DNA of 51,515 bases. It comes from a virus (Duplodnaviria; Heunggongvirae; Uroviricota; Caudoviricetes). The notes beneath the pieces were generated by a model, which made no database searches, was not told the origin of the DNA, and was given only the letters and a program-made list of their open reading frames with translations. The position numbers and the translations under genes were made by a program. Every line of letters starts with the position of its first letter. The first letter of the stretch is position 1. This document shows, piece after piece, positions 1 to 29,786 of the stretch. The stretch lies in the IMG/VR virus record IMGVR_UViG_2681813321_000027; one strand, 5' to 3'.

Positions 1-1005
1 TTAATCCCCCGTGGACACTGCGTGGACACTCACGCCACCTTTCAGCGGATTAAGGGCCACCGCATCCTGCAGGTAATCCGGTGCAAAATGTGCATATGCC
101 ATTGTTTGCTGAATGGTTGCGTGGCCAAGAATCTTCTGAAGCGCAATAATGTTTCCTCCGTTCATCACAAAATGGCTGGCGAACGTATGCCGCAGCACAT
201 GTGCAGCCTGGCCTTTTGGTAAATCGGGCTTAACTCTTTTCAGCGCCAAGCAGAATTCCCGGTACTTCACCTCAAACAAGCCGCCTGTTTCTCTGGTTTT
301 GATCGCCTCACAAACTGCCTGCGAAATTGGCACTGTTCTCTTTCGGCCATTTTTGGTTTCAAGAAACGTTACACGGTTATGAACTATCTGTTCACCACGA
401 AGCTTACAAGCTTCACTCCAGCGCGCCCCTGTGCTTAAACACAAAAGCGCAACACGCCAGTAGTCGCCATCCAGTGTATCGAGCAATAGCGCTACTTCCT
501 TCTGGGACAGGAAAGCCATTTCTCGCGGGGATACATAAAGAATGGAGATCCCCCTTACCGGATGTTCTGCATCCCAAAGGCCTATTCTTTTCAGAACAGT
601 AAACATGCCGGATAGTCGGTTCATGTACCTGTTAGCAGATGACGGTTTCAATCCAGCAGCTATCTTTTGAGAACGCCACGCGATAATTTTCAACTTATCA
701 AGATCCACAGCCTGCATATCAGCGCCAAGTTCATTGATTATGTTGCACAGTTGTTTTCGGTCTTCTTCCGCCTTACGCCTGTGTTGACCGTGATACATCC
801 ACCACAACTCAAGCAAATCATTTAGCGTTCGGCGATCACGGTAGCCCTGTATATATTCCCGCTTTTCAGCGTTCGCCATGATGTAGCGTTCAGTGGCCAC
901 CGCTACCGATTTTTTGTCAAATACCTTACGCACGCGCTTTCCCTTGCGTCCGTTCGGCCTGATGTCCAGCAAATAACGACCATCTTCGAGCTTCTTAATT
1001 GACAT
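1..1005 (-). CDS. int: tyrosine integrase (P2 Int family)
   Basis: 334 aa; collinear with P2 Int as recalled (IKKLxDGRY N-terminus, LRHTFA and GHxxIQQTMxYAHFAP catalytic C-terminus); ATG at 1005, TAA at 1-3; first gene in prophage order. Confidence 0.9.
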   Translation of the reverse strand: MSIKKLEDGRYLLDIRPNGRKGKRVRKVFDKKSVAVATERYIMANAEKREYIQGYRDRRTLNDLLELWWMYHGQHRRKAEEDRKQLCNIINELGADMQAVDLDKLKIIAWRSQKIAAGLKPSSANRYMNRLSGMFTVLKRIGLWDAEHPVRGISILYVSPREMAFLSQKEVALLLDTLDGDYWRVALLCLSTGARWSEACKLRGEQIVHNRVTFLETKNGRKRTVPISQAVCEAIKTRETGGLFEVKYREFCLALKRVKPDLPKGQAAHVLRHTFASHFVMNGGNIIALQKILGHATIQQTMAYAHFAPDYLQDAVALNPLKGGVSVHAVSTGD

Positions 1006-1101
1006 TGCGAAGCCCTCCAATGAACCGCCCTACAATTTCTCCAGCCTCTTTCCAGCAATAATCAGACCAGACAAAGAGCAGGTCTAACCAGTTTTCTGGA
1101 C

Positions 1102-1422
1102 TTAGCGGGGTGATTTTTGGTTTGTTTCGGTTGAAACCTGATCGCCCTCCGAATCGAAGAAGCCATCAAGAGAGAGAGGCGGAGCAATCTGCCCCGTCGC
1201 AGCATTAGTTTGATTAAACATCACCCAATCCGAATACTTCCGAAAACGAGGATGATTCAAAATCAGGAGTAACGTTTCTCCAGGTATCATTCTTCCCAAT
1301 ATTTCATAATTTTTGAGATTGTATTGAGATACCCCTGTCACCTCTTCCATCTCTCTACGTGACAATCCCTCTGCCTCTCGAATCAGGCGAAGTTTTTCTC
1401 CAAGGCTTGATTTATGGATCAT
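1102..1422 (-). CDS. C: immunity repressor (P2 C-like)
   Basis: 106 aa from ATG at 1422 (track ORF begins at an upstream GTG); HTH region and FxKYxxWxMxNQxxxxxGQIAP motif resemble P2 C; divergent from cox. Confidence 0.75.
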   Translation of the reverse strand: MIHKSSLGEKLRLIREAEGLSRREMEEVTGVSQYNLKNYEILGRMIPGETLLLILNHPRFRKYSDWVMFNQTNAATGQIAPPLSLDGFFDSEGDQVSTETNQKSPR

Positions 1423-1537
1423 ATGTGATCTAAACTCCACGCTATTGGGTTACATGTAATACAAAACATTCAAATAGCCAAAATAAGCCTATATAAGTCA
1501 TTTTGGGCCATTTGGACGAATTAAGGAGATTACCACA
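1423..1537. promoter_or_regulatory. C/cox divergent promoter-operator (lysis-lysogeny switch) region
   Basis: AT-rich 115-bp gap between divergent repressor and cox; TATA-like hexamers; strong RBS aaggag before cox. Confidence 0.4.
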
Positions 1538-1825
1538 ATGAGCGAATCAGAGCTTGAGGGGTTCATTCAGGTAGCACCATATCCACTTGAAGCGGTGCCA
1601 TATCAACTATTTGCCAAGATGATTGGTCGCAAAGAATCAACCGTCAGAACCATGATTGACGCTGCAAAGTTACCAACGATTGACTTTGTGAAACCAGGTT
1701 CAGTGAAGACGCGAGCATCAGAAAACTGGGTATATCTGCCAGCATTTAACGCAGGTATGCGCAAAGCGTTTTTTGATCAGCCGAAAGAACGCCGCGATGC
1801 ATGGTTGTTGTGGCTGGGGCTTTAA
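1538..1825 (+). CDS. cox: Cox-like excisionase/early regulator
   Basis: 95 aa; YxxFAKxIGxxxxxVRxMID and WVYLPAxN and WLxWLGL motifs match P2 Cox as recalled. Confidence 0.8.
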   Translation: MSESELEGFIQVAPYPLEAVPYQLFAKMIGRKESTVRTMIDAAKLPTIDFVKPGSVKTRASENWVYLPAFNAGMRKAFFDQPKERRDAWLLWLGL

Positions 1826-4010: not shown

Positions 4011-4042
4011 GAAACCAGAACATGCACACACAAAAAAACCGC

Positions 4043-4153
4043 TTGCCATGCCGCAATCAGTCAGGTTACATTTCCGCTGCACCTCACAAAACGGGTGTCG
4101 GGTTTCGCAGCCTGCTGACTACACAAGCGCACAACCGCGCCAGCGGTTTTTTT
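4043..4153 (+). ncRNA. candidate small RNA (promoter to intrinsic terminator)
   Basis: TTGCCA-N17-TACATT at 4043-4071, then stem aaccgc/gcggtt (4133-4148) followed by T5-7; no ORF with RBS inside. Confidence 0.25.
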
Positions 4154-4332
4154 GTGCGTACTGTATTGCCACGTTTTTTTCGCGTCAGAATTATGGCGGG
4201 GCGTACGGGGCCGACTTCGGTCGGGCCGGGTTCTTGTGTAGCCGGTACTGCGAACCTCGTACGTCTCGCCACCCACAGTTTCGCAGCTCTGGATGGTGAG
4301 TTTTCACAACTTACTACACAAGGGGCCACACC

Positions 4333-4563
4333 ATGGCAAACCGCAAACCACACCGCGCTATCGCGGAGAGTCGTCACATCCAGACTGAAATCAACCGCAG
4401 ACTTTCCCGCGCATCACGCGTCGCGCAAATCATGCACATCAATATGCTGCATGAGCGCAGCCACGCACTATCAAACATTTATTCCGCCTCTGTTTTCAGC
4501 TATCTGGCGGATGATCTGCACGAGCTTCAACAGCTCATCCAGCAGCAAAACAAACTCCATTAA
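4333..4563 (+). CDS. hypothetical protein
   Basis: 76 aa; aagggg RBS 9 nt upstream. Confidence 0.4.
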   Translation: MANRKPHRAIAESRHIQTEINRRLSRASRVAQIMHINMLHERSHALSNIYSASVFSYLADDLHELQQLIQQQNKLH

Positions 4564-4635
4564 TTCCTGTTCCGGGCCTTTCCTGCACCTTGCGGCGGGA
4601 GGCCTTCGCACATCTGTAACAAGAGGATTGCCGCA

Positions 4636-5001
4636 ATGATTCTCGCCAACGACTTTCTTGAATACCTGCTCAACACAGAACGTGATCTTGCCGCTCGCGT
4701 GCGTGATCGTTATGACATGTACCTGAAATCCCTGCCTGTACCGCAGCTCGCTGACGGAAAGATTGTTATTGATGGTCGCTACATGATTGACAGCCACGAG
4801 GGAAATTACAGGCTTTACCGCATTGAAGGTGGCACCCCGTCCGTTATTGGCATTTACCAGCGCCCATCCTCTGCAATCGTCGATGTGATTGCCGACAGCA
4901 TCCGCATCACACATCGCCATGCCGACACAGAAGACACCGTGCTGGAAATTCAGCGGCTGGCTACAGTCTGCCGCGACACCCTGAATGGCATGACGAAGTA
5001 A
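4636..5001 (+). CDS. hypothetical protein
   Basis: 121 aa; immediately upstream of A. Confidence 0.5.
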   Translation: MILANDFLEYLLNTERDLAARVRDRYDMYLKSLPVPQLADGKIVIDGRYMIDSHEGNYRLYRIEGGTPSVIGIYQRPSSAIVDVIADSIRITHRHADTEDTVLEIQRLATVCRDTLNGMTK

Positions 5002-5007
5002 ATCACT

Positions 5008-7830
5008 ATGACGGCAGAGTACATCAGGGACTGGCAACAACCGCGCCACGCAGTGGGGCGTGAAGGAACGGGGATCCCCGCTCCTGAATCCGCGCTTTCC
5101 TCCTGGCTGGATGCCTACCGGGCAGAGAACGAGCGCCGCCAGGAAATGGCTGATGCGGCGTTCTCCGCCACGCCGCTGGGCAACCTGATTAATAAAAGCC
5201 TGGACGCACAGGAAAAACAGGACAAAACCATCACACTGGCAGGAGACGCCAGAAAACAGGCACGTGGCGCGGTGGATGAAGCCATGGCCTCGCTGCGCCT
5301 GCTGCCGTCCTATCTGCGCGATCCGCTTATTCGCCACCTCTCCTTCCTGCGCAAAAAACAGGAAGCCGATCGCCGGAAAGGCAAAAAGAGCTGGCAGGCT
5401 GAACGCTACGCGTGCGGAACCCTGCGCAAAATATTCGAACGTCTGGACCGCACCGACCACCGCTGGCTGACACCGGGTTATCGCTCCCTTGCCGGACGCG
5501 AACGCCTGGATGATTTGCTTTACCTGCCGCAGCTCAACAAACACCAGATACAGACGCTGGCCACCATGACGGCGGCGATGTTCAGCAGCACCTTCGAAAA
5601 ACTCTGCGATGGCTTTGGCGCGACTGATGGCGAGCTGACCATGGATGTAACGCTGAAGGCTTATCAGATGCTGGCCCGCATGGCGTTACACCTGCACGCC
5701 ATGCCTCCACATTATGACGCACTGACAACAGACAAAGACCGGAGGAACGAACCGGACACGGAGCTGCTGCCGGGCGCAATCCTTCGCTTGACCTGTGCGG
5801 AATGGTGGAAACGCAAACTATGGCTGTTGCGTTGTGAGTGGCGGGAAGAACAACTCCGCGCCGCCTGTCTGGTTTCCAGAAAAACATCCCCCTATCTGAG
5901 CCAGGACGCGTTAAGCGAGTTTCGCGCACAGCGCGAGAAAACACGCGATTTCCTGAAAAGTTTCATGCTGGAAAATGAAGACGGGTTCACGATTGATCTC
6001 GAGACGGTGTATTACGCGGGAGTAAGTAACCCGGTTCACCGTAAGGCAGAAATGATGGCCACCATGAAGGGACTGGAACTTCTGGCCGAAGCCCGTGGCG
6101 ACAGAGCGGTGTTTCTGACCGTCACCTGCCCGTCAAAATACCACGCAACAACGGAGAACGGTCATCCGAACCCCAAATGGAACGGGGCCACCATGCGCGA
6201 CTCCAGCGATTACCTGGTTAACACGTTTTTTGCGGCGGTCCGCAAAAAACTGAACCGCGACGGCCTGCGCTGGTATGGCATCCGCACGGTGGAGCCTCAC
6301 CATGACGGCACTGTGCACTGGCATATGATGGTCTTTGCACATCCGGACGAGATTGAAACCATCGTGTCCCACGTCTGCGATATTGCCATTCAGGAGGGCC
6401 GCCACGAGCTGGGCGATGACATAACTCCGCGTTTTAAGGCGGAGTATGTCGACGGCTCAAAAGGCACACCAACCAGCTACATCGCCACCTACATCGGAAA
6501 GAACCTGGACAGCCGCGCCGTGGATGGCATCGACCCGAAAACGGGCAAGCCACGCGTTGACCACGAAACCGGAAAATCAATGGCCGAGAGCGTGGAGCGC
6601 GCCATCGGCTGGGCGCGCCTTCACCGGGTCCGTCAGTTCCAGTTCTTTGGCATCCCCTCCCGTCAGGTGTGGCGTGAACTGCGCCGCCTTGCCAGCCAGA
6701 TGGCACGCAATCCGGAAGGCCCGCAACGGCTGAAAGATGATGCAATGGATGCGGTACTCGCTGCCGCCGATGCCGGGTGTTTTGCCACCTACATTGAAAA
6801 ACAGGGTGGCGTGCTTGTTCCACGCAAGGACTACCTGATTCGCACCGCCTACGACCTCGCAGATGAGCTGAACGATTACGGCGAACAGAGCGTACAGATT
6901 TACGGGATCTGGTCACCACTCATCGGGGAATCCTCCCGTGTGTGCACGCATCCGGATAACTGGAAGCTGGTAAGACGTAAACCAGAACCGGAAGACAACG
7001 CCCACGAAAATGGTTTTGACCTTCAGGGCGGCCCTGCCGCCCCTTGGACTCGTGGCAATAACTGTCCCCGTGTACAGGAAACGGACGACAACGGGACAGA
7101 ACAGCCGGAAGAACGGCCAGCACCGTGGCCGCAGCTCCCTGACGGCGTTGAAGTGAACGAATGGATGCGCTCACTGAAACGGCACGAACGCCGGGCGCTG
7201 ATGCGTTCGCTTCGTGACAAACAGGCAAAAAACAGCAGTGATGAAATGCAGAGCTGGACACAGAGCCGCAAACAGCAGCGGCCTTTGCCTGATAACCACG
7301 AATTACTCGCTAAAGAATGGCGGGAGTCTGCTGAATCTCTCGGCCTGCATATCGGTGAACAGCAGATGCAGCACCTGTTACGGGGCGGCAGCCTGTACGT
7401 TGACGGCAGCATCATTGCACCGCAGGGATTTGAAATTGTACGCAAACCGGATACCCGACCGGACAGCCGGATCACGCAGCTCTGGCAGCGCCTGAGCCGT
7501 AACCACGGCGTAAGCAGTACGGAGATCCGCCATAACCCGGTCGCCAGCTATCTGGAACAGCTGGGGGCATCAGACCCCGAAGCCGCCGCACGCCTGGCAT
7601 CCACACTTCAGCAGGACCAGAACACCATGAAAACACCCGTTACCGTGCTTTCTGACATGCTGCGCGCCATCCGCGACGCAGAGCACGCACAGAGAATCAG
7701 TGAAACCACTGAACGCGCCCGCCGCAAAGCAGACCTGCTGCGGGGTAGCCTGACCAGTGGAAACAAAAAACAGACAGAAAAGGGATTCACAAATCCCGTA
7801 AATGAGCAAAAAACGCGCCGCGATATATGA
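5008..7830 (+). CDS. A: rolling-circle replication initiator (P2 gpA family)
   Basis: 940 aa; HUH motif VHWHMMVF (about 6316-6336) and two-tyrosine motif YIATYIGK (about 6475-6501); long charged C-terminal region. Confidence 0.85.
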   Translation: MTAEYIRDWQQPRHAVGREGTGIPAPESALSSWLDAYRAENERRQEMADAAFSATPLGNLINKSLDAQEKQDKTITLAGDARKQARGAVDEAMASLRLLPSYLRDPLIRHLSFLRKKQEADRRKGKKSWQAERYACGTLRKIFERLDRTDHRWLTPGYRSLAGRERLDDLLYLPQLNKHQIQTLATMTAAMFSSTFEKLCDGFGATDGELTMDVTLKAYQMLARMALHLHAMPPHYDALTTDKDRRNEPDTELLPGAILRLTCAEWWKRKLWLLRCEWREEQLRAACLVSRKTSPYLSQDALSEFRAQREKTRDFLKSFMLENEDGFTIDLETVYYAGVSNPVHRKAEMMATMKGLELLAEARGDRAVFLTVTCPSKYHATTENGHPNPKWNGATMRDSSDYLVNTFFAAVRKKLNRDGLRWYGIRTVEPHHDGTVHWHMMVFAHPDEIETIVSHVCDIAIQEGRHELGDDITPRFKAEYVDGSKGTPTSYIATYIGKNLDSRAVDGIDPKTGKPRVDHETGKSMAESVERAIGWARLHRVRQFQFFGIPSRQVWRELRRLASQMARNPEGPQRLKDDAMDAVLAAADAGCFATYIEKQGGVLVPRKDYLIRTAYDLADELNDYGEQSVQIYGIWSPLIGESSRVCTHPDNWKLVRRKPEPEDNAHENGFDLQGGPAAPWTRGNNCPRVQETDDNGTEQPEERPAPWPQLPDGVEVNEWMRSLKRHERRALMRSLRDKQAKNSSDEMQSWTQSRKQQRPLPDNHELLAKEWRESAESLGLHIGEQQMQHLLRGGSLYVDGSIIAPQGFEIVRKPDTRPDSRITQLWQRLSRNHGVSSTEIRHNPVASYLEQLGASDPEAAARLASTLQQDQNTMKTPVTVLSDMLRAIRDAEHAQRISETTERARRKADLLRGSLTSGNKKQTEKGFTNPVNEQKTRRDI

Positions 7831-7875
7831 AGCGCGCATAAAACAGGCAAAAACGGGATTTCAGAATCCCGTAAA
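7782..7875. promoter_or_regulatory. paired palindromic repeats upstream of parM (parC-like centromere/operator candidate)
   Basis: gggattcacaaatcccgtaaa (7782-7802, inside the last codons of A) and gggatttcagaatcccgtaaa (7855-7875); each an inverted repeat gggatt-N4-aatccc; copies in repeat units 2 and 3, absent from unit 4. Confidence 0.4.
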
Positions 7876-7906
7876 CGATTAATTAATCAACATAAGGAAA
7901 AGCGAC

Positions 7907-8866
7907 ATGAAAATTTGTATCGATGACGGCTCCACCAACATCAAGCTGGCATGGACTGAGAAGGGCGAACGCCGCAACGCCATCAGCCCAAACAGCTTCA
8001 AGTCGGAATGGTCTGCGCCGTTCGGTGGCACGCAGCCCGCGAACTACATGCTTGATGGCGTGCGCTATGGTTTTGATCCGGTCAGCGATCGCTTTGTCCA
8101 GACGACCGACACGCAATACCAGTACAGCGATGTGAATGTCATTGCCATTCATCACGCGCTGGTCAAATCAGGCATCACACCACAGGAAGTGGATGTGGTT
8201 GTCACCCTGCCACTGAGCGAATATTTCGACACAAACGCACAGCCGGACATGGCCAACATCAATCGCAAAAAAGCAAACGTCATGCGCCCGGTGGCGTACC
8301 AGAACGGAAAAGCATTCACTATCCGTAACGTACGGGTTATGCCTGAATCCATTCCGGCTGGTTTTAAAGCACTGGCTGACATGAGTCCGTTTGAATCCCT
8401 GCTGATTGTGGATTTAGGCGGAACCACGCTGGATGTGGCAAAGGTTCAGGGACAACTGGCAGGTATCAGCCAGGTGTTTTGCGATCCACACGTAGGCGTT
8501 TCCCTGATGGCCGATGCCGTACTGTCGGTGATGGCCACTAACGGTATGCGTACCAGTCACCACATCGCCAATACCATTATCGAACATCGCCATGATGAAG
8601 CCTGGCTGCGCCAGCACATCCACAATGACGCGCATTACGCCAGCCTGATGGCGGTTATTCGTGAAAAGGAAGAAACACTGAAACAACGCGTGTTCCGCGC
8701 GCTGGCGGGTTTTTCGGGTTACGGGCGGGTGATGGTTGTCGGTGGCGGGGCGGAGATTGTGGCACCCGCTATCCGCGAAGCCTGCGGAGTTAATGCGACT
8801 TTCATCGCGGACGGGGTGCCACAGTTTGCTCTGGTTAATGGGCTGTACGCAATGGACAAGGAGTAA
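7907..8866 (+). CDS. parM: ParM/StbA-like actin-fold ATPase
   Basis: 319 aa; MKICIDDGSTNIKLAW, DLGGTTLDV and VVGGGAEI motifs; collinear with plasmid R1 ParM as recalled. Confidence 0.85.
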   Translation: MKICIDDGSTNIKLAWTEKGERRNAISPNSFKSEWSAPFGGTQPANYMLDGVRYGFDPVSDRFVQTTDTQYQYSDVNVIAIHHALVKSGITPQEVDVVVTLPLSEYFDTNAQPDMANINRKKANVMRPVAYQNGKAFTIRNVRVMPESIPAGFKALADMSPFESLLIVDLGGTTLDVAKVQGQLAGISQVFCDPHVGVSLMADAVLSVMATNGMRTSHHIANTIIEHRHDEAWLRQHIHNDAHYASLMAVIREKEETLKQRVFRALAGFSGYGRVMVVGGGAEIVAPAIREACGVNATFIADGVPQFALVNGLYAMDKE

Positions 8867-8870
8867 ACCA

Positions 8871-9182
8871 ATGACGACACCAACCAGACGGATAAGTTTC
8901 TATCTGAAGCCCGCCGCCGTCAAGAACGAAGGCGAAGCATGCGCCTGGCTGGACAGCCTTACACCAGAAGCCCGCAAAAGTGGTCAACGCGTGGCTTTTC
9001 TGGCCGGGCTGGCACTACTGAAAATGAATCCGGCAGAGGCTTACCGACTGGCTGCATGGGCTGATGATGAGGCGTTATCAGTGACACAAACCAGGACAGA
9101 ACGCCCCGCGTCACAGCCAGTACCAACCGCACAGATAACCAGTCAGATGGCCGGAAATATCCGGGCGTTATTTCCCGAATAA
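8871..9182 (+). CDS. parR: ParR-like adaptor (putative)
   Basis: 103 aa from ATG 8871 with aaggag RBS; AFLAGLALL and IRALFPE resemble R1 ParR; directly downstream of parM. Confidence 0.55.
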   Translation: MTTPTRRISFYLKPAAVKNEGEACAWLDSLTPEARKSGQRVAFLAGLALLKMNPAEAYRLAAWADDEALSVTQTRTERPASQPVPTAQITSQMAGNIRALFPE

Positions 9183-9188
9183 CACAAC

Positions 9189-9210
9189 ATCAGGGCGCAT
9201 CCGCCCTGAT
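9189..9210 (+). other. perfect hairpin between parR and zbd gene
   Basis: atcagggcg-catc-cgccctgat, 9-bp stem, 7 nt after parR stop; no strong T-run. Confidence 0.3.
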
Positions 9211-9245
9211 GACTTTAACCCGGGAGCATAAACAAGGGGGACACA

Positions 9246-9578
9246 ATGCAATACATTGACAGAGAAAAAGCGCAGCGACTGATTGAGCGGATGGAAGCGC
9301 TGGCGAAAGAAGAAAATGTCAACATCCAAAAAATAGCTGAATGTGGCCAGATAGTTCTTCGTCGTGAAAAAGACCTCAAACAACTGATGTCTGGCGAAAC
9401 CAGCAAAACATGGACTTCAGGCGAGAAGACGGTTTATTGCAGTTTCTGCAATAAATCCCAGTACGAAGTCACAAAGGTGATTGCCGGACCGTCTGTTTAC
9501 ATCTGCAATGAGTGTGTGGATTTGTGCAATGAAATTATCAGGAAAGAAGTGACAGACAAAAAGGAAAAAAACGCATGA
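9246..9578 (+). CDS. standalone ClpX zinc-binding-domain (C4 zinc finger) homolog
   Basis: 110 aa; C-terminal [38 protein letters not shown] closely matches the ClpX N-terminal ZBD (CxxC...CxxC); no AAA+ module. Confidence 0.75.
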
Positions 9579-9982
9579 ACAGAAAACAGAAACAAGAGTT
9601 GAAATACTTCTTACGTAAAGAAATTGCCAGGCTTGAAGATGCAGAGTCACAATCATCAGAAATTCCGTTCGGAATGGATATCAACGACGCCCGTATGCTT
9701 CAGGCATACCGTATAGCTCAGGCTGCACTACAGACAAAACCGTTAAATAACATACATGAAAAGTATGATTATTTTACGGATACCGCTTGCTTGCTGACAT
9801 CTGAAGAACAAAAGATAGCCCAACTTTTAGGCGACGCATGGAACCTGTATTTAACATTGCCAGTTGAGCATCCAATGGGTAGAGATGAATTTTGCCGGGC
9901 AATTCATCATTGCCAAAATATGGTGTTGGCACGCCCGGCCATCAGGGCGCTGGCCAGGAAGGGGCAAGGCTATAAAAGATAA
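9575..9982 (+). CDS. hypothetical protein co-translated with zbd
   Basis: 135 aa; ATGA overlap with zbd stop; no recognised domain. Confidence 0.55.
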
Positions 9983-9984
9983 GT

Positions 9985-10014
9985 AAAACGCCCTCCTCCA
10001 GGGCGTTTATTTCA
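9985..10014 (+). terminator. intrinsic terminator of the accessory operon
   Basis: aaacgccct-cctcc-agggcgttt followed by atttc; copies at about 16976, 25492, 33377. Confidence 0.6.
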
Positions 10015-10467
10015 ATGCACAATAGTGCACAAATTTGCACAATTTTTTTGAACGACTGTTTACCCTTCCAGCCCGTATAGCGGCTGGATCCGTCAAGGAT
10101 CCGTGCGTGCACAAAAAAACGCGCTTTTTCTGCGCGCAGGTGACGGGGGAACAGCCCGCGTTTCAGGGGGTAAATAGCATTCCCTGAACGATGTCGCAGA
10201 GACACAACAGAATGGCTGTATTTCTCACTCTGAGCGTGAAAAATACGTGAGGGATTCTGATTTGATGGGGTGAAAGGTAAGGCCGTCAAAATCGCACTGA
10301 GGCGGCGAAGAACATGCAGTCAACGCGGTGGGATTGCGTAAGAGTCTGACCGCCGATGATGGCAATAAGCAGAAAAGCGTCGTGAAATTATCTGATTGAT
10401 ACAGGAGCTGGAGAGCCGGGGCATAAATTTTTTATGCCCCGGCGAAGCAGCAGACAAGCGAAGCGCG
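10015..10467. other. cos / packaging region (candidate)
   Basis: 453-bp non-coding region in the P2 cos position next to the Q stop; three tgcacaa direct repeats (10015-10045), 13-bp-stem hairpin 10415-10443, G-rich tract gaggcggcgaagaacatgc at about 10298-10316. Confidence 0.4.
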
Positions 10468-11514
10468 TCAGGATGTGGGCTGGGTATCTAACAGTGCGTA
10501 AGGGTTAAAGCGGATCACCTCTTCGCCAAGCCAGTCATTGATGTGCTTCATGGCCTCCATGACGGGCATCAGCTCGTTAATTGCGTAAACCCGCGCGGCC
10601 TTCTCCACATCACCAAACGCACTTTTTTCACCCGGCATCGCCCCCATAAGTTGCGGCGGAACGCGGTGCGCAGCCAGCACATCATCACGGGATGCCGCCT
10701 TAACATTCATGAACTCATCCTTTGCGGTGATCTGCTGGAACGGCAAAATTTGCACCCCCTCTTTGCCCCCGTTGGGCGCATGAATGAGCACGTTTTTAAA
10801 CGCACCGCCACCACGTGCACCCTGTAGCGTTTCTTTCAGGGAGTCCATGCTTTCGCGGTTTACCTGCGCTGCACCGATGTAGATGATGCACCCGGCGTGG
10901 GATCCGTTGTCGTAATACAGTTTTCTGAACATGTCCGCCGAATGAGACAGGCTGGCCGAGAGTAATGCGCCGAGATATTCCGGCATGCCGTAGATTTCCT
11001 GGTTAATGTCAGGATTCATCAGGTGGCACACTTTGCCAGGGCGAAACTGGAACGCATCCTTGCCATCCTGCACATACCACCATGATTCAAGATCGCTACC
11101 GCGTCGCATGTATTTCGCCAGGGCGTGCCGTAATTTAAGCGGTTCGCCGAGCATATTGCTTCGAAGCTCAAGGAATGCGTTACCGAACACAAACCAGTCC
11201 AGCGCCAGCGCCGAGAAATCCTGCCGGGAAAGCAGCGGGTGCGGGATGTAGCAACCGAGTAATACATTGCGCTTAAAGTAAAGCGCAGACTGATGCCAGG
11301 ACGTTTGCCGGGCAGCTCTTGCCAGACCGTACCAGTCCACCGGGGTTTCATACCACCGCCCGTTATCAGCACAGTACATATTGTCCAGCAGGTCATGCCC
11401 GGTCAGGCGATAAGGACCATCAAATGTGAATGCACTGAGCGACGATTCTTTCCTGAGCGCATCAGCGAGATCAATGCGTGAACTCATGCGCACTTTTTTA
11501 TTTTTTCTGCTCAT
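10468..11514 (-). CDS. Q: portal protein (P2 gpQ family)
   Basis: 348 aa; size and position match P2 Q; ATGA overlap with P. Confidence 0.85.
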   Translation of the reverse strand: MSRKNKKVRMSSRIDLADALRKESSLSAFTFDGPYRLTGHDLLDNMYCADNGRWYETPVDWYGLARAARQTSWHQSALYFKRNVLLGCYIPHPLLSRQDFSALALDWFVFGNAFLELRSNMLGEPLKLRHALAKYMRRGSDLESWWYVQDGKDAFQFRPGKVCHLMNPDINQEIYGMPEYLGALLSASLSHSADMFRKLYYDNGSHAGCIIYIGAAQVNRESMDSLKETLQGARGGGAFKNVLIHAPNGGKEGVQILPFQQITAKDEFMNVKAASRDDVLAAHRVPPQLMGAMPGEKSAFGDVEKAARVYAINELMPVMEAMKHINDWLGEEVIRFNPYALLDTQPTS

Positions 11515-13229
11515 CAGAACTCCATAACCGTGAAACGCTCGTTTTCTCCTTCGCCGCCAATCGGTTCGTTAATGACAGCAAGCATGGTTGCCCACGCAAG
11601 GTCGCCGTGGCTGATCCCCCTCGCGCGGTCCGTTTCGTAAGTGATAAAGCCGCCCGGTGTTTTCACCTTACGCACGGCGTTAAAGGCCGCGACCAGCTCG
11701 CGTTCGGCGCGATCGTATTCCCACCGCCCGGCACGCATTATTTGCAGCATTTTCAGTACCAGCGACCGTTTTGATGACAGCGTGAAGGTGTACGGAATAG
11801 CAGCAGGGAAAAACCGTTTCACTATCTGATAAACAGCCTCCCCGTTCCCGCCCGTCACATCAATGCCGATGTGTTCCACGTTGTAGCGATACGTGAACTC
11901 TTCAATGACTCTGGCCTGTTCTTCAAACTCCAGCCCCTGAACGCGTCTCGTCTCCACCGTTCGAAAACGGCCACCAGGAACAGCCGGAGGAACCACCACG
12001 GACACAGCGCCGCTGTCGCCGTTGCCACTGCTGCCGTTTGCGTCATACCCAATCCATACCGGACGATTCCCCATCGGGCGGGGAGCAAAAGGTTTCCAGT
12101 CTTTCCAGTCGTCGTATCCGTCAACACCGCAGCCAATCAGGATATTCAGGTTAAATGCCGATTCCCCTTCGCGGACAAACTCACACATATAGAGATTGAG
12201 GAACTCGTCTTCGGTGTTTTCATCACGAATTTCGTCGATATCGGTGTGTTTCCAGCCGTGATTAACCACATCTTCCAGCGTGACAATTTGCCGCCACGTC
12301 CGGTCAGGGCAGATAAGCCCGTTATGCAGCGTTTTCCAGTCCACAGAAAAACGCTGGCGTTTATGCGAGGCCTTTTTCTCGTTCCAGCGGTCGCCGTTCC
12401 AGTAGGCGTATGCCTCGTGCGTTTCGGTGGATGGCGTGGAGAAGTAGGTGCGTCGCAGCCCGCTGAGGGTTGCCATAGCGCCAGCCACCTTGCGCAGTTC
12501 AGCAAAGCGACTGACCCAGAAAAATTCATCAAAATAAAAATTGCCCGTATAGGACTGTGCCGTCGCAGCAGAAGTACCGAGAAAATGCAGTTCTGCGCCG
12601 TTGGAGAGGATGATTTTATCGCCCCCTTTCAGCTCCACATCAACTTCAGCCGCGGCCTTCTGAATAATGCTTTTAAACTGGAACGCCTGACGACGCGACG
12701 CAGACAAAAAAATCTGGTTACGCTGGTAAGGTTGTGCCACATCGTCACGCAGCGCCATCAGCAGTGCTTCCTGTGCAAAATACCAGGTCGCCCCAATCTG
12801 TCGGGATTTCAGGATCATCCTGTTACGTATCCCGGCTTCACTGCAAAGGGTCAGGGAGTCAAACCAGCCCCGCTGATGCCACTCCAGCCTGCTGATGATT
12901 TTTTCCCGCAGTGCGGCAATCTGTTCCGGCGTGAAATGATTTTTGAGTTTTTTCGCCCGGCCTTTCTTTCCTGCGGCCGTCACATCCGGCTGGCCATCAT
13001 GCAGCTTTTTAAGCTGCCGGGTCAGCAGGTCTATTTCCTTAAAGTCACCACCTGTTTTATTCTGTTTTTCAGTAAGCTGGATGAGACGCGCATCGATGGA
13101 CTGCGTGACACGCTGCACGGGTGGCGTTTCATCCCACTGGTCGCGTTTTTTCCACGCATAAATCGTGTTCGGGTTTATTCCCATCAGACGTGATATTTCT
13201 GCGGGCGGATAACCCTGCCAGTAAAGTTG
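11514..13229 (-). pseudogene. P: terminase ATPase subunit gpP, 5'-truncated at junction J1
   Basis: matches full P copies from about residue 13 onward; upstream part of the 605-aa track ORF is antisense A sequence. Confidence 0.7.
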
Positions 13230-13231
13230 AC
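13229..13231. other. junction J1: P 5' region / orphan A / internal A (= 6240)
   Basis: ...gtaaagttg + a + ccgcaaaaaactg...; compared with intact copies at 20220 and 6240. Confidence 0.85.
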
Positions 13232-14821
13232 CGCAAAAAACTGAACCGCGACGGCCTGCGCTGGTATGGCATCCGCACGGTGGAGCCTCACCATGACGGC
13301 ACTGTGCACTGGCATATGATGGTCTTTGCACATCCGGACGAGATTGAAACCATCGTGTCCCACGTCTGCGATATTGCCATTCAGGAGGGCCGCCACGAGC
13401 TGGGCGATGACATAACTCCGCGTTTTAAGGCGGAGTATGTCGACGGCTCAAAAGGCACACCAACCAGCTACATCGCCACCTACATCGGAAAGAACCTGGA
13501 CAGCCGCGCCGTGGATGGCATCGACCCGAAAACGGGCAAGCCACGCGTTGACCACGAAACCGGAAAATCAATGGCCGAGAGCGTGGAGCGCGCCATCGGC
13601 TGGGCGCGCCTTCACCGGGTCCGTCAGTTCCAGTTCTTTGGCATCCCCTCCCGTCAGGTGTGGCGTGAACTGCGCCGCCTTGCCAGCCAGATGGCACGCA
13701 ATCCGGAAGGCCCGCAACGGCTGAAAGATGATGCAATGGATGCGGTACTCGCTGCCGCCGATGCCGGGTGTTTTGCCACCTACATTGAAAAACAGGGTGG
13801 CGTGCTTGTTCCACGCAAGGACTACCTGATTCGCACCGCCTACGACCTCGCAGATGAGCTGAACGATTACGGCGAACAGAGCGTACAGATTTACGGGATC
13901 TGGTCACCACTCATCGGGGAATCCTCCCGTGTGTGCACGCATCCGGATAACTGGAAGCTGGTAAGACGTAAACCAGAACCGGAAGACAACGCCCACGAAA
14001 ATGGTTTTGACCTTCAGGGCGGCCCTGCCGCCCCTTGGACTCGTGGCAATAACTGTCCCCGTGTACAGGAAACGGACGACAACGGGACAGAACAGCCGGA
14101 AGAACGGCCAGCACCGTGGCCGCAGCTCCCTGACGGCGTTGAAGTGAACGAATGGATGCGCTCACTGAAACGGCACGAACGCCGGGCGCTGATGCGTTCG
14201 CTTCGTGACAAACAGGCAAAAAACAGCAGTGATGAAATGCAGAGCTGGACACAGAGCCGCAAACAGCAGCGGCCTTTGCCTGATAACCACGAATTACTCG
14301 CTAAAGAATGGCGGGAGTCTGCTGAATCTCTCGGCCTGCATATCGGTGAACAGCAGATGCAGCACCTGTTACGGGGCGGCAGCCTGTACGTTGACGGCAG
14401 CATCATTGCACCGCAGGGATTTGAAATTGTACGCAAACCGGATACCCGACCGGACAGCCGGATCACGCAGCTCTGGCAGCGCCTGAGCCGTAACCACGGC
14501 GTAAGCAGTACGGAGATCCGCCATAACCCGGTCGCCAGCTATCTGGAACAGCTGGGGGCATCAGACCCCGAAGCCGCCGCACGCCTGGCATCCACACTTC
14601 AGCAGGACCAGAACACCATGAAAACACCCGTTACCGTGCTTTCTGACATGCTGCGCGCCATCCGCGACGCAGAGCACGCACAGAGAATCAGTGAAACCAC
14701 TGAACGCGCCCGCCGCAAAGCAGACCTGCTGCGGGGTAGCCTGACCAGTGGAAACAAAAAACAGACAGAAAAGGGATTCACAAATCCCGTAAATGAGCAA
14801 AAAACGCGCCGCGATATATGA
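13231..14821 (+). pseudogene. A: 3' fragment of A (about residues 412-940), no start
   Basis: identical to 6240-7830. Confidence 0.8.
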
Positions 14822-14897
14822 AGCGCGCATAAAACAGGCAAAAACGGGATTTCAGAATCCCGTAAACGATTAATTAATCAACATAAGGAAAAGCGAC

Positions 14898-15857
14898 ATG
14901 AAAATTTGTATCGATGACGGCTCCACCAACATCAAGCTGGCATGGACTGAGAAGGGCGAACGCCGCAACGCCATCAGCCCAAACAGCTTCAAGTCGGAAT
15001 GGTCTGCGCCGTTCGGTGGCACGCAGCCCGCGAACTACATGCTTGATGGCGTGCGCTATGGTTTTGATCCGGTCAGCGATCGCTTTGTCCAGACGACCGA
15101 CACGCAATACCAGTACAGCGATGTGAATGTCATTGCCATTCATCACGCGCTGGTCAAATCAGGCATCACACCACAGGAAGTGGATGTGGTTGTCACCCTG
15201 CCACTGAGCGAATATTTCGACACAAACGCACAGCCGGACATGGCCAACATCAATCGCAAAAAAGCAAACGTCATGCGCCCGGTGGCGTACCAGAACGGAA
15301 AAGCATTCACTATCCGTAACGTACGGGTTATGCCTGAATCCATTCCGGCTGGTTTTAAAGCACTGGCTGACATGAGTCCGTTTGAATCCCTGCTGATTGT
15401 GGATTTAGGCGGAACCACGCTGGATGTGGCAAAGGTTCAGGGACAACTGGCAGGTATCAGCCAGGTGTTTTGCGATCCACACGTAGGCGTTTCCCTGATG
15501 GCCGATGCCGTACTGTCGGTGATGGCCACTAACGGTATGCGTACCAGTCACCACATCGCCAATACCATTATCGAACATCGCCATGATGAAGCCTGGCTGC
15601 GCCAGCACATCCACAATGACGCGCATTACGCCAGCCTGATGGCGGTTATTCGTGAAAAGGAAGAAACACTGAAACAACGCGTGTTCCGCGCGCTGGCGGG
15701 TTTTTCGGGTTACGGGCGGGTGATGGTTGTCGGTGGCGGGGCGGAGATTGTGGCACCCGCTATCCGCGAAGCCTGCGGAGTTAATGCGACTTTCATCGCG
15801 GACGGGGTGCCACAGTTTGCTCTGGTTAATGGGCTGTACGCAATGGACAAGGAGTAA
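14898..15857 (+). CDS. parM: ParM-like ATPase, copy 2
   Basis: identical protein, offset +6991. Confidence 0.8.
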   Translation: MKICIDDGSTNIKLAWTEKGERRNAISPNSFKSEWSAPFGGTQPANYMLDGVRYGFDPVSDRFVQTTDTQYQYSDVNVIAIHHALVKSGITPQEVDVVVTLPLSEYFDTNAQPDMANINRKKANVMRPVAYQNGKAFTIRNVRVMPESIPAGFKALADMSPFESLLIVDLGGTTLDVAKVQGQLAGISQVFCDPHVGVSLMADAVLSVMATNGMRTSHHIANTIIEHRHDEAWLRQHIHNDAHYASLMAVIREKEETLKQRVFRALAGFSGYGRVMVVGGGAEIVAPAIREACGVNATFIADGVPQFALVNGLYAMDKE

Positions 15858-15861
15858 ACCA

Positions 15862-16173
15862 ATGACGACACCAACCAGACGGATAAGTTTCTATCTGAAG
15901 CCCGCCGCCGTCAAGAACGAAGGCGAAGCATGCGCCTGGCTGGACAGCCTTACACCAGAAGCCCGCAAAAGTGGTCAACGCGTGGCTTTTCTGGCCGGGC
16001 TGGCACTACTGAAAATGAATCCGGCAGAGGCTTACCGACTGGCTGCATGGGCTGATGATGAGGCGTTATCAGTGACACAAACCAGGACAGAACGCCCCGC
16101 GTCACAGCCAGTACCAACCGCACAGATAACCAGTCAGATGGCCGGAAATATCCGGGCGTTATTTCCCGAATAA
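15862..16173 (+). CDS. parR: ParR-like, copy 2
   Basis: offset +6991. Confidence 0.5.
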   Translation: MTTPTRRISFYLKPAAVKNEGEACAWLDSLTPEARKSGQRVAFLAGLALLKMNPAEAYRLAAWADDEALSVTQTRTERPASQPVPTAQITSQMAGNIRALFPE

Positions 16174-16236
16174 CACAACATCAGGGCGCATCCGCCCTGA
16201 TGACTTTAACCCGGGAGCATAAACAAGGGGGACACA

Positions 16237-16569
16237 ATGCAATACATTGACAGAGAAAAAGCGCAGCGACTGATTGAGCGGATGGAAGCGCTGGCGAAAG
16301 AAGAAAATGTCAACATCCAAAAAATAGCTGAATGTGGCCAGATAGTTCTTCGTCGTGAAAAAGACCTCAAACAACTGATGTCTGGCGAAACCAGCAAAAC
16401 ATGGACTTCAGGCGAGAAGACGGTTTATTGCAGTTTCTGCAATAAATCCCAGTACGAAGTCACAAAGGTGATTGCCGGACCGTCTGTTTACATCTGCAAT
16501 GAGTGTGTGGATTTGTGCAATGAAATTATCAGGAAAGAAGTGACAGACAAAAAGGAAAAAAACGCATGA
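16237..16569 (+). CDS. ClpX ZBD homolog, copy 2
   Basis: offset +6991. Confidence 0.7.
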
Positions 16570-16973
16570 ACAGAAAACAGAAACAAGAGTTGAAATACTT
16601 CTTACGTAAAGAAATTGCCAGGCTTGAAGATGCAGAGTCACAATCATCAGAAATTCCGTTCGGAATGGATATCAACGACGCCCGTATGCTTCAGGCATAC
16701 CGTATAGCTCAGGCTGCACTACAGACAAAACCGTTAAATAACATACATGAAAAGTATGATTATTTTACGGATACCGCTTGCTTGCTGACATCTGAAGAAC
16801 AAAAGATAGCCCAACTTTTAGGCGACGCATGGAACCTGTATTTAACATTGCCAGTTGAGCATCCAATGGGTAGAGATGAATTTTGCCGGGCAATTCATCA
16901 TTGCCAAAATATGGTGTTGGCACGCCCGGCCATCAGGGCGCTGGCCAGGAAGGGGCAAGGCTATAAAAGATAA
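16566..16973 (+). CDS. hypothetical 135-aa protein, copy 2
   Basis: offset +6991. Confidence 0.5.
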
Positions 16974-17458
16974 GTAAAACGCCCTCCTCCAGGGCGTTTA
17001 TTTCAATGCACAATAGTGCACAAATTTGCACAATTTTTTTGAACGACTGTTTACCCTTCCAGCCCGTATAGCGGCTGGATCCGTCAAGGATCCGTGCGTG
17101 CACAAAAAAACGCGCTTTTTCTGCGCGCAGGTGACGGGGGAACAGCCCGCGTTTCAGGGGGTAAATAGCATTCCCTGAACGATGTCGCAGAGACACAACA
17201 GAATGGCTGTATTTCTCACTCTGAGCGTGAAAAATACGTGAGGGATTCTGATTTGATGGGGTGAAAGGTAAGGCCGTCAAAATCGCACTGAGGCGGCGAA
17301 GAACATGCAGTCAACGCGGTGGGATTGCGTAAGAGTCTGACTGTCGATGATGGCAATCAGCAGGAAAGCGTCGTGAAATTATCTGACTGATACAGGAGCT
17401 GGAGAGTCGGGGCATAAATTTTTTATGCCCCGGCGAAGCAGCAGACAAGCGAAGCGCG

Positions 17459-18505
17459 TCAGGATGTGGGCTGGGTGTCTAACAGTGCGTAAGGGTTAAA
17501 GCGGATCACCTCTTCGCCAAGCCAGTCATTGATGTGCTTCATGGCCTCCATGACGGGCATCAGCTCGTTAATTGCGTAAACCCGCGCGGCCTTCTCCACA
17601 TCACCAAACGCACTTTTTTCACCCGGCATCGCCCCCATAAGTTGCGGCGGAACGCGGTGCGCAGCCAGCACATCATCACGGGATGCCGCCTTAACATTCA
17701 TGAACTCATCCTTTGCGGTGATCTGCTGGAACGGCAAAATTTGCACCCCCTCTTTGCCCCCGTTGGGCGCATGAATGAGCACGTTTTTAAACGCACCGCC
17801 ACCACGTGCACCCTGTAGCGTTTCTTTCAGGGAGTCCATGCTTTCGCGGTTTACCTGCGCTGCACCGATGTAGATGATGCACCCGGCGTGGGATCCGTTG
17901 TCGTAATACAGTTTTCTGAACATGTCCGCCGAATGAGACAGGCTGGCCGAGAGTAATGCGCCGAGATATTCCGGCATGCCGTAGATTTCCTGGTTAATGT
18001 CAGGATTCATCAGGTGGCACACTTTGCCAGGGCGAAACTGGAACGCATCCTTGCCATCCTGCACATACCACCATGATTCAAGATCGCTACCGCGTCGCAT
18101 GTATTTCGCCAGGGCGTGCCGTAATTTAAGCGGTTCGCCGAGCATATTGCTTCGAAGCTCAAGGAATGCGTTACCGAACACAAACCAGTCCAGCGCCAGC
18201 GCCGAGAAATCCTGCCGGGAAAGCAGCGGGTGCGGGATGTAGCAACCGAGTAATACATTGCGCTTAAAGTAAAGCGCAGACTGATGCCAGGACGTTTGCC
18301 GGGCAGCTCTTGCCAGACCGTACCAGTCCACCGGGGTTTCATACCACCGCCCGTTATCAGCACAGTACATATTGTCCAGCAGGTCATGCCCGGTCAGGCG
18401 ATAAGGACCATCAAATGTGAATGCACTGAGCGACGATTCTTTCCTGAGCGCATCAGCGAGATCAATGCGTGAACTCATGCGCACTTTTTTATTTTTTCTG
18501 CTCAT
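17459..18505 (-). CDS. Q: portal gpQ, copy 2
   Basis: identical protein. Confidence 0.85.
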   Translation of the reverse strand: MSRKNKKVRMSSRIDLADALRKESSLSAFTFDGPYRLTGHDLLDNMYCADNGRWYETPVDWYGLARAARQTSWHQSALYFKRNVLLGCYIPHPLLSRQDFSALALDWFVFGNAFLELRSNMLGEPLKLRHALAKYMRRGSDLESWWYVQDGKDAFQFRPGKVCHLMNPDINQEIYGMPEYLGALLSASLSHSADMFRKLYYDNGSHAGCIIYIGAAQVNRESMDSLKETLQGARGGGAFKNVLIHAPNGGKEGVQILPFQQITAKDEFMNVKAASRDDVLAAHRVPPQLMGAMPGEKSAFGDVEKAARVYAINELMPVMEAMKHINDWLGEEVIRFNPYALLDTQPTS

Positions 18506-20256: not shown

Positions 20257-20410
20257 TGCTCCCCCTGAGTAATTACAGGAAGATTACCCGCGCGCGAAAC
20301 CGTTCTCCTTAACCCCCTGTTCTGGCCGTTTTCTTACAACAAAAGCCCTTTGTATCAGCCTGTTACGCTTTGCCATCATGACTGAAGAACCAGTCAGAGG
20401 GGCAAAAACT
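20257..20410. promoter_or_regulatory. divergent late promoter region (P leftward, O rightward)
   Basis: 154-bp gap between divergent P and O; TGT...ACA dyad candidates; copies at 28773-28926 and 36658-36811. Confidence 0.4.
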
Positions 20411-21247: not shown

Positions 21248-21270
21248 TAAGACAAAGGAGCAAATTTTTT

Positions 21271-22323: not shown

Positions 22324-22368
22324 TCAACTCACGGCGGGCATCATGCCCGCCTGTAACGGAGAGAAAAA

Positions 22369-22559
22369 ATGATTACTCCTGCACAGCAACACTGGCAGAA
22401 CGTGATGGCACAGCGCGCAGGCCGGGCGAATGAAGGCGTGGACCACGCCGCGCGTACCGCGCATGAAGAGGTGCTGTATCGTCTGCGTCTGGCACAGGCC
22501 CGGCTTAAGGGCGTACAGGCCAGAAGCGCGAAAGCCGCCATCAAAAAAGAGTTATTGCC
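22369..22559 (+). pseudogene. M: terminase small subunit gpM, first 63 codons only (fused to A at J2)
   Basis: identical to start of full M at 38770; track ORF 22369-23337 is an M::A chimera. Confidence 0.8.
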
Positions 22560-22561
22560 AG
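22559..22561. other. junction J2: M / orphan A / internal A (= 7054)
   Basis: ...gagttattgcc + a + ggcaataactgtcccc... Confidence 0.85.
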
Positions 22562-23337: not shown

Positions 23338-23413
23338 AGCGCGCATAAAACAGGCAAAAACGGGATTTCAGAATCCCGTAAACGATTAATTAATCAACAT
23401 AAGGAAAAGCGAC

Positions 23414-24373: not shown

Positions 24374-24377
24374 ACCA

Positions 24378-24689: not shown

Positions 24690-24752
24690 CACAACATCAG
24701 GGCGCATCCGCCCTGATGACTTTAACCCGGGAGCATAAACAAGGGGGACACA

Positions 24753-28772: not shown

Positions 28773-28926
28773 TGCTCCCCCTGAGTAATTACAGGAAGAT
28801 TACCCGCGCGCGAAACCGTTCTCCTTAACCCCCTGTTCTGGCCGTTTTCTTACAACAAAAGCCCTTTGTATCAGCCTGTTACGCTTTGCCATCATGACTG
28901 AAGAACCAGTCAGAGGGGCAAAAACT

Positions 28927-29763: not shown

Positions 29764-29786
29764 TAAGACAAAGGAGCAAATTTTTT

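Follow-up and report, generated by a model that had tools for sequence, protein, structure and literature searches.

RNA-based prophage immunity of the class considered here has been known since 1990. In phages P1 and P7, the antisense RNA C4 blocks ant (PMC8198154, PMC12197685). In satellite phage P4 the immunity factor is the CI RNA, and in the Salmonella prophage Gifsy-1 the small RNA (sRNA) IsrK, a structural homologue of P4 SeqA, precedes a read-through transcript from which STnc1160 is processed, with activation of the antirepressor AnrP (PMC4825925). The 5′ end of C4 is cut by RNase P in P1 and P4 (PMC8198154, PMC12197685, PMC4825925). Here we analyse a stretch of viral DNA of 51,515 nucleotides (nt), IMG/VR virus record IMGVR_UViG_2681813321_000027 (the window), in which positions 4029-4332 hold an isrK RNA, a C4 RNA and the sites with which C4 can pair. 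Identification of this region as an IsrK–C4 module is practically certain, and the module is homologous to seqA–cI–seqC of P4, c4 of P1/P7 and isrK/STnc1160 of Gifsy-1. Very probably it serves a P88-like prophage (genus Xuanwuvirus, P2-type) as an RNA-based immunity module that controls an antirepressor. The whole functional chain, extrapolated from P1/P7, P4 and Gifsy-1, is likely to operate here too.

Two adjacent RNA genes

The isrK and C4 families give the only two Rfam matches above curated thresholds in the whole window, with E-values of 3.1e-12 and 2.9e-16, respectively (Table 1). The isrK match coincides, end to end, with the RNA predicted from promoter to terminator, and C4 begins after a spacer of 35 nt. 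C4 has a minimum free energy of -47.7 kcal/mol (z = -4.46). Because the single-sequence fold of IsrK is no more stable than that of shuffled sequence (z = -0.40), the case for IsrK rests on the covariance model and the conserved layout and not on folding energy.

Two short recognition elements of C4, a′ in a single-stranded junction and b′ in a hairpin loop, each have two exact complements in the module. One pair of complements, a1 and b1, lies within IsrK, where a1 is displayed in a loop and b1 is single-stranded after it; the other, a2 and b2, lies in the leader of the downstream messenger RNA (mRNA). The complements span 7 nt at the a sites and 9 nt at the b sites. The b2 site overlaps a Shine–Dalgarno sequence located 7 nt before the ATG at 4333, the start of a 76-amino-acid (aa) epsilon-like gene.

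Many of these parts had been noticed in an earlier note, made from the sequence alone, which described a structured non-coding island with a sigma70-like promoter at 4043-4071, an intrinsic terminator at 4133-4153 closing an RNA of about 75 nt, a UUCG hairpin at 4211-4224 with cgtacg palindromes, and a motif occurring twice. Each feature that it lists is in the sequence, at positions that deviate by a few bases at most. The promoter is there, with an 18-nt spacer to a TACATT that ends at 4072 or, if the alternative -10 TTACAT is read, a 17-nt spacer and an end at 4071. The terminator has its stem at 4133-4148 and a T-run to 4153, and the RNA that it closes, 4079-4153, is the Rfam isrK. The hairpin and palindromes turn out to be parts of C4; the CGTACG at 4202 and that at 4258 are opposite strands of its basal stem. 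The motif does occur twice (TTTCGCAGC at 4103 and 4279; ACTACACAAG at 4118 and 4313), but its second copy spans 4279-4322 rather than 4277-4317. The note had left open whether the island was a regulatory sRNA or a protein-binding or origin-like site: the former is supported, IsrK being an sRNA family, whereas the DNA-site option finds no support, given that the RNA stem covaries and the repeats match RNA loops. The structured island is thus one known module, in which C4 as a second RNA gene, the pairs of target sites and the predicted regulation of a downstream antirepressor homologue had been missed.

Table 1. Features of the isrK–C4 module and its surroundings, in window positions
Feature	Position	Strand	Description
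PisrK, sigma-70-type promoter	4043-4072	+	TTGCCA (4043-4048), 18-nt spacer, TACATT (4067-4072); predicted start about 4079
IsrK / P4 SeqA-type leader RNA, 75 nt	4079-4153	+	Rfam RF01394, 61.9 bits (gathering score 50), model 1-77 of 77
IsrK 5′ hairpin	4079-4098	+	From the fold; compensatory changes in hairpin 1 (consensus fold, 17 homologues)
IsrK second hairpin	4099-4114	+	a1 in loop; b1 single-stranded after it
a1 target/decoy	4104-4110	+	TTCGCAG; exact complement of a′; loop of IsrK hairpin 2
b1 target/decoy	4119-4127	+	CTACACAAG; exact complement of b′; within IsrK
Intrinsic terminator	4133-4153	+	Stem 4133-4148, T-run to 4153
C4 antisense RNA (P1/P7 C4, P4 CI type)	4189-4276	+	Rfam RF01695, 83.2 bits (gathering score 45), model 1-87 of 87
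C4 basal stem, 17 bp	4194-4210 with 4255-4271	+	Holds both CGTACG palindromes
C4 hairpin 1	4211-4224	+	CCGAC-TTCG-GTCGG, UUCG loop
C4 hairpin 2	4225-4246	+	b′ in loop
b′ recognition element	4233-4241	+	CTTGTGTAG; loop of C4 hairpin 2
a′ recognition element	4248-4254	+	CTGCGAA; single-stranded junction of C4
a2 target	4280-4286	+	TTCGCAG; exact complement of a′; downstream mRNA leader
Element X	4294-4300	+	TGGTGAG; complement of 3′ strand of C4 basal stem (4265-4271)
b2 target	4314-4322	+	CTACACAAG; exact complement of b′; overlaps Shine–Dalgarno AAGGGG (4320-4325)
Epsilon-like gene, 76 aa	4333-4563	+	Pfam PF25738 (Derepression protein family), 32.1 bits (cutoff 27)
ORF205, 205 aa	4022-4639	+	Overlaps module and epsilon-like gene; judged non-coding
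Integrase	1-1020	-	Opens the P2-type lysogeny switch of the window
C-type immunity repressor (helix-turn-helix)	1102-1440	-	35% identity to P2 C, E = 2e-19; Pfam and PHROG matches
Cox homologue	1538-1825	+	56% identity to P2 Cox; Pfam and PHROG matches
Ead/Ea22-like gene, 99 aa	3711-4010		Directly before the RNA island
orf121	Between epsilon-like gene and gene A		PHROG of unknown function
gpA-type replication protein (gene A), 940 aa	5008-7830		Closes the early operon that begins after Cox

Neither the promoter scan (3 promoter-like sites against 1.9 expected) nor the terminator scan (6 terminator-like sites against 3.0 expected) is significant by itself; the Rfam E-values, the z-score of the C4 fold, the kept promoter position and the three-way complementarity all go far beyond chance. 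A promoter of TTGAYT/TTGCCA plus TAnAnT type occurs at an equal distance upstream of isrK position 1, its end a few bases away, in 15/15 loci, with differing sequences, and the stretch 4029-4080 is identical in phage P88 and in Citrobacter phage Shae_phiSM despite different upstream genes. Another promoter-like site at 4166-4194 (TTGCCA, 17 nt, AATTAT) was considered as a promoter of C4's own and rejected: its start would sit inside the C4 stem, its -35 is changed in P88 and the Citrobacter phage, and relatives with spacers of 23-24 nt have no space for it. Among the loci compared, the interval from the IsrK terminator to C4 has no conserved promoter. By analogy with the described systems, we infer that C4 is processed from a longer precursor to a stable trans repressor of about 77 nt.

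A further element, X, lies between a2 and b2; its complement is the 3′ strand of the basal stem of C4. X occupies this place in every locus (L002-L015 and L020 included), and 6 of its 7 pairs show compensatory changes. In the minimum-energy fold of 4079-4345, X pairs with the 3′ strand of the C4 stem while a1/b1 pair with a′/b′ in cis, and because of these pairings the folding model points to two alternative conformers of the precursor, with X offering an alternative pairing in the unprocessed transcript. These conformers may be related to the structures named A and B in work on Gifsy-1.

Comparison with P4, P1/P7, Gifsy-1 and Stx phages

The closest known system is the P4 immunity region (PLE promoter, seqA, cI RNA, seqC, epsilon and alpha). 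On its minus strand, P4 has both RNAs in the order found here, as matches to the two Rfam models (isrK 8615-8692, C4 8420-8507), and it shares the leader-adjacent promoter, the exact a1/a2 and b1/b2 complements and element X. Downstream, P4 has its epsilon ‘derepression’ gene and then its replication gene, and the 76-aa protein of the window is homologous to P4 epsilon. The two arrangements differ in that the spacer between leader RNA and cI is 107 nt in P4 as against 35 nt here, and in that the open reading frame (ORF) starting after b2 in P4 is a different one (MATTLTP...), with epsilon farther on, whereas here b2 lies on the ribosome-binding site of the epsilon-like gene itself. In P4 the immunity factor is CI RNA (PMC4825925); in the window the RNA coexists with a P2 C-type protein repressor. 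P4, moreover, is a satellite, whereas the carrier here is a helper-type P2-like phage.

With the immI region of P1/P7 the window shares the RNA family (RF01695 is named for P1/P7 C4) and the design in which a processed antisense RNA acts against its own transcript near a ribosome-binding site and the antirepressor is prevented. P1/P7 C4 forms a second tier under a protein repressor, and sequence differences there give heteroimmunity (PMC8198154, PMC12197685). Unlike P1/P7, as known from published descriptions of P1, the window lacks icd and ant1/ant2 homologues and instead has a small epsilon-type gene as the regulated one, followed by orf121 and a gpA-type gene; here, a1/b1 also sit in a separately terminated IsrK-type sRNA.

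Gifsy-1 isrK belongs to the same family and has its own promoter, a leaky terminator, a stable RNA processed from the read-through transcript and an antirepressor gene downstream, and its C4-like part forms pairs with IsrK sequences (PMC4825925). Gifsy-1 is, however, lambdoid, and AnrP is unrelated to epsilon. In Gifsy-1, translation is coupled through a leader ORF of 45 codons whose stop overlaps the anrP start codon (AUGA), whereas the equivalent frame here is out of register. Hfq binding, partial terminator read-through and trans activation by IsrK are reported for Gifsy-1 only (PMC4825925).

Modules in lambdoid Stx phages, upstream of Rha/antirepressor genes, also have both RNAs above the gathering scores, promoters and cognate a/b sites, and one GenBank record of an Stx phage (LC710660) already annotates ‘isrK Hfq binding RNA’ and ‘C4 antisense RNA’. 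Three Stx phages share the a element TTCGCAG of the window. These modules differ from that of the window in their nucleotide sequence (about 69% identity), 24-nt spacer, Rha-type downstream gene and b elements.

Conservation, covariation and specificity types

We compared the window with 14 loci, including satellite phage P4, from the hosts E. coli, Citrobacter, Salmonella, Klebsiella, Hafnia and Aeromonas, making 15 loci in all. Both isrK and C4 score above their gathering scores, in the same order, in each of the 14 comparison loci, and isrK is directly upstream of C4 in 15/15, with a gap of 23-35 nt except in P4 (107 nt). The earlier note had proposed covariance across relatives as a check, and the outcome favours RNA: in an alignment of 17 C4 sequences, all 27 pairs form in every sequence (100% of cells) and 13 of the 27 show compensatory double changes. 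When the partners are slid by 1-3 columns as a control, pairing falls to 32-46% of cells, and none of 500 shuffles matches the level of covariation observed.

The a and b elements vary by phage, yet three-way a/b complementarity is kept in 15/15 loci, with a mean complementarity of 16.1 nt between cognate partners as opposed to 8.2 nt between non-cognate ones. The 244-nt module of the window differs from its P88 counterpart at 40 sites, 21 of which lie in the six a/b elements (48 nt in total), which are still matched; the adjacent 228-nt gene has 6 differing sites. At least five a/b specificity types occur in the P88-like lineage. These sequence patterns suggest that the a/b elements are specificity determinants and that close relatives differing in them would be heteroimmune at the RNA level.

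Searched for the exact b′/a′ of the window, IMG/VR yielded 40 contigs, all of them P88-like with an epsilon-like gene; all four targets are kept in 39/39 complete loci, and a2 in 40/40. At an identity of at least 80%, 1153 of 5426 complete E. coli genomes carry the module.

The a element TTCGCAG (4104-4110 / 4248-4254) is also common to lambdoid Stx1/Stx2 phages and phage ASU11 (L011, L013, L014, L017), in which b differs. Because a is shared while b differs, specificity appears to combine two parts that vary independently. We considered, and rejected, cross-talk with satellites or with lambdoid phages sharing the specificity, the contigs with exact b′/a′ being all P88-like and some lambdoid phages sharing a but not b. 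A decayed copy of the module is found in E. coli MDK9L1 (L022, 401-616), in which isrK is intact, C4 is truncated after hairpin 1, IS1 and integrase fragments follow the C4 remnant, and a/b complementarity is lost.

The regulated gene and a proposed mechanism

Over 48 residues, the product of the gene that starts at 4333 is 31% identical to P4 epsilon (E = 3e-8), and the variable sites of this gene peak at third codon positions (21/20/36). P4 epsilon inactivates the P2 repressor and thereby derepresses prophage P2 (PMC8628076, citing Liu et al. 1997); by analogy, the 76-aa protein is presumed to be an antirepressor against the P2 C-type repressor of this phage. Among the papers available, a literature search on regulation in P88/Xuanwuvirus, or on a ‘derepression protein’ in P2-like phages, returned nothing relevant.

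In the mechanism that we propose, transcripts starting at about 4079 would mostly end at 4153 and give IsrK, and those that read through the IsrK terminator would be processed to stable C4 of about 77 nt. C4 would then pair with a2/b2 on transcripts that begin at PisrK or at the early promoter upstream, or on those of a superinfecting phage with matching specificity. This pairing would block translation of the epsilon-like gene and probably cause polar premature termination before orf121 and gene A. Short IsrK, through a1/b1, would compete for C4, the IsrK:C4 ratio thus setting the switch. In Gifsy-1, excess IsrK supplied in trans raises translation of the downstream antirepressor more than 100-fold (PMC4825925). 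Once made, the epsilon-like protein would inactivate the P2 C-type repressor and allow lytic growth, and, with a/b elements setting specificity, relatives with other a/b elements would escape each other's C4.

Phage P2 itself is classically non-inducible. For P88-like phages, which are closely related to P2, we tentatively raise the possibility that the IsrK:C4 ratio, perhaps through X and terminator read-through, is the real switch for induction by way of the epsilon-like antirepressor. A helper-type phage would then carry the cassette of a satellite, the a/b types would be an RNA heteroimmunity code, and Ash (see below) would be translated RNA; we consider this combination somewhat less probable than its opposite.

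We also considered how PisrK might be controlled. The 8-mer GGTTACAT occurs at 1448-1455, in the C/Cox intergenic control region, and at 4064-4071, over the -10 of the isrK promoter. It is the sole 8-mer common to the Pe/Pc region and the module, where about 0.2 such matches are expected by chance; it could hint at repressor control of the module, or it may mean nothing. Comparison of PisrK with the C/Cox operator region gave just this one shared 8-mer and no operator-like repeats; the C repressor may or may not control PisrK. Control by the SOS response was likewise rejected: in the window, the SOS box CTGT-N8-ACAG matches only within the gene A copies, there is no LexA box in the module, and the TACTGTAT of the spacer is just a half-site.

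Weighing the alternatives

Several observations count against the proposed immunity module. The Rfam model RF03163 (c4-a1b1) stays below threshold at 4066-4118, with 19.9 bits against a gathering score of 46.7; because a1/b1 sites are present and cognate, this shortfall concerns the flanking consensus and not function. Promoter firing, terminator leakiness and C4 processing are, in this phage, predictions from the DNA. The published models disagree with one another, as C4/CI in P1/P4 represses through a2/b2, whereas IsrK in Gifsy-1 opens a cis structure and a leader ORF over C4 is translated. Neither model, as summarised, names element X, conserved and covarying though it is. The conserved AUG inside C4 (C4 positions 5-7, here at 4193) opens a frame that the downstream gene shares in 11/15 loci, though not in P88-like phages; here the epsilon-like gene lies in another register and the AUG frame continues to 4639, and for that reason translational coupling of the Gifsy-1 type would not work alike. 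Finally, identity to P4 epsilon reaches just 31% over 48 residues, and binding of the C repressor is a prediction.

The strongest competing view takes the module mainly for replication immunity of the P4 type, in which C4 would pair with a1/b1 and a2/b2 and terminate transcription, silencing orf121 and gene A, with control of epsilon being secondary. It draws on the P4 CI mechanism (as summarised in PMC4825925), on P4 itself, in which isrK and C4 match their Rfam models and follow each other in this order ahead of epsilon and alpha, and on the place of the module directly before the epsilon-like gene, orf121 and gene A, between which the terminator scan finds no consensus terminator. As the main function we judge this rather unlikely: with b2 on the epsilon-like gene's ribosome-binding site, the arrangement is that of P1-type translational control, and a P2 C/Cox switch is already present to silence the early operon. 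The two outputs, replication immunity and translational control, are nonetheless compatible with each other. That IsrK is instead an independent Hfq-binding sRNA acting in trans on host genes, with C4 an incidental neighbour, is improbable. The Rfam family is indeed named ‘isrK Hfq binding RNA’, and IsrK has its own promoter and a terminator with the U-tail typical of Hfq-binding sRNAs, but isrK immediately precedes C4 in 15/15 loci, and the parts of it that vary, a1 and b1, do so in step with the cognate C4 loops. A DNA element, whether origin-like or protein-binding, is hardly conceivable. The two CGTACG palindromes and the twice-occurring motif on which it would be founded exist, yet the palindromes are opposite strands of an RNA stem with compensatory substitution in relatives, the repeats are complementary to and covary with RNA loops, the module has no LexA box (CTGT-N8-ACAG being confined to the gene A copies), and just one 8-mer is common with the C/Cox operator region (about 0.2 expected). 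By analogy with P2, where it is so annotated, the phage origin would be expected inside the gene A homologue.

A protein-coding region, the nucleotide conservation of which would reflect coding constraint, is a further rival to the RNA module and a very doubtful one. As the earlier note had said, the island holds only overlapping ORFs: ORF205 (4022-4639), 4048-4299 and two on the minus strand. RefSeq NC_049391 (phage P88_4B11; L001/L023, 31202-31819) calls ORF205 a ‘transcriptional regulator’ and omits the 76-aa gene, and other records label it ‘Ash family’. It approaches Pfam PF10554 (Phage_ASH) at 25.0 bits, just below the cutoff of 26, through residues 16-109, which correspond to 4067-4348, that is, to the RNA module. 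One frame is open across the module in 11/15 loci with the isrK–C4 register mostly kept, the ORF205 frame is open in nearly all P88-like loci, and a short ORF over the C4-like part (orf45) is translated in Gifsy-1 (PMC4825925). Against a protein, differences in the module are flat by codon position (14/14/12 for P88, 12/12/16 for the Citrobacter phage and 16/18/17 for 26 unique sequences), whereas variable sites downstream peak at the second codon position of ORF205, which is the third position of the epsilon-like gene. With no codon-position bias and RNA structure kept, the module is thus conserved as nucleotide rather than as protein, a distinction that the earlier note had asked about. The ORF205 ATG is absent in P88 and four IMG/VR relatives, P88's own annotation does without ORF205, and the NCBI Prokaryotic Genome Annotation Pipeline (PGAP) leaves the region empty or gives a partial ‘ash family’ pseudogene. 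In each locus tested (the window and five others), the stretch matched by PF10554 is that of the RNA module, and coordinated a/b changes at three places, together with compensatory stem changes, are inexplicable at the protein level. Even for orf45 of Gifsy-1, the amino-acid sequence varies and the nucleotide sequence is conserved (PMC4825925). We therefore rejected ORF205/‘Ash’ as a real protein, there being no coding signature; on these sequence patterns, a functional 205-aa protein is very unlikely. By analogy, a leader frame across the module may nevertheless be translated, since a frame is open in 11/15 loci and the 45-codon leader ORF of Gifsy-1 is translated.

The Ash family and existing annotations

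PF10554 overlaps the translated isrK–spacer–C4–a2/b2 stretch in the window (4067-4348), in L010 (1489-1770), in L007 (1494-1784) and in P4 (L005, 8330-8689). Besides P4, the matches include a Hafnia ‘Ash family protein’ and the N-terminal ends of annotated Rha/‘antirepressor’ proteins in Stx and Salmonella phages. PF10554 served as the P4 epsilon profile in one study (PMC8628076), whereas the actual P4 epsilon gene (P4 7888-8175) belongs to PF25738. Judged by these coincidences of position, the Pfam Ash family is probably translated RNA. In the P4 RefSeq record NC_001609 (L005), a coding sequence for a 137-aa ‘cI gene product’ (8168-8584) still lies over the C4/CI RNA.

The locus is a known kind of RNA module, so far unannotated or mis-annotated in this phage lineage, and it overturns no known principle. 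The 1153 complete E. coli genomes that carry the module lack annotation of the RNAs, and the RefSeq phage record shows a spurious 205-aa ‘transcriptional regulator’ in place of both RNAs and the real 76-aa gene; once these errors were put right, the prophages would be interpreted differently. Both the ‘Rha/Ash’ proteins described in Stx phages (PMC8951638) and the choice of PF10554 as an epsilon marker for P4-like satellites (PMC8628076) merit re-examination. The module connects a helper-type phage to the cassette for immunity and derepression of its satellite P4, and it offers a way in which P2-type prophages that encode an epsilon-like antirepressor might be induced or might shut out close relatives. 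If the tentative switch set out above were true, an RNA switch would govern induction in P88-like phages and the a/b types would be an RNA heteroimmunity code among P2-like prophages, which occur in about one-fifth of complete E. coli genomes.

Genome context and further observations

The DNA around the island is 99% identical to that of the Escherichia phages P88_4B11 and PhiR44_2 (genus Xuanwuvirus), and 86-88% identical to that of phage P88 and Citrobacter phage Shae_phiSM. No similarity was found between orf121 and P4 orf151. Annotated plasmid-partition (par) genes (7907-9200; L001 8458-9451) adjoin the 3′ side of gene A. Such genes downstream of gene A are unusual in an integrating P2-type phage.

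The window contains nested tandem partial duplications of about 99.8% identity (6240-13235 = 13231-20227; 14045-22559 = 22561-31075; 23384-31267 = 31269-39152; 42431-46658 = 46657-50883). Mapped on phage P88_4B11, it runs from gene A through par to the portal and terminase genes and then makes three jumps back into gene A; one further jump back lies within the tail block. The duplications look like long-read mis-assembly or amplification. The isrK/C4 island is single-copy and lies outside the duplicated stretches 6240-39152 and 42431-50883.

In phage phi191 (L015), downstream of its isrK/C4 module and between the Rha gene and the anti-repressor gene, positions 2523-2606 match the Rfam family sRNA-Xcc1 (RF02221) with 79.6 bits against a gathering score of 53.

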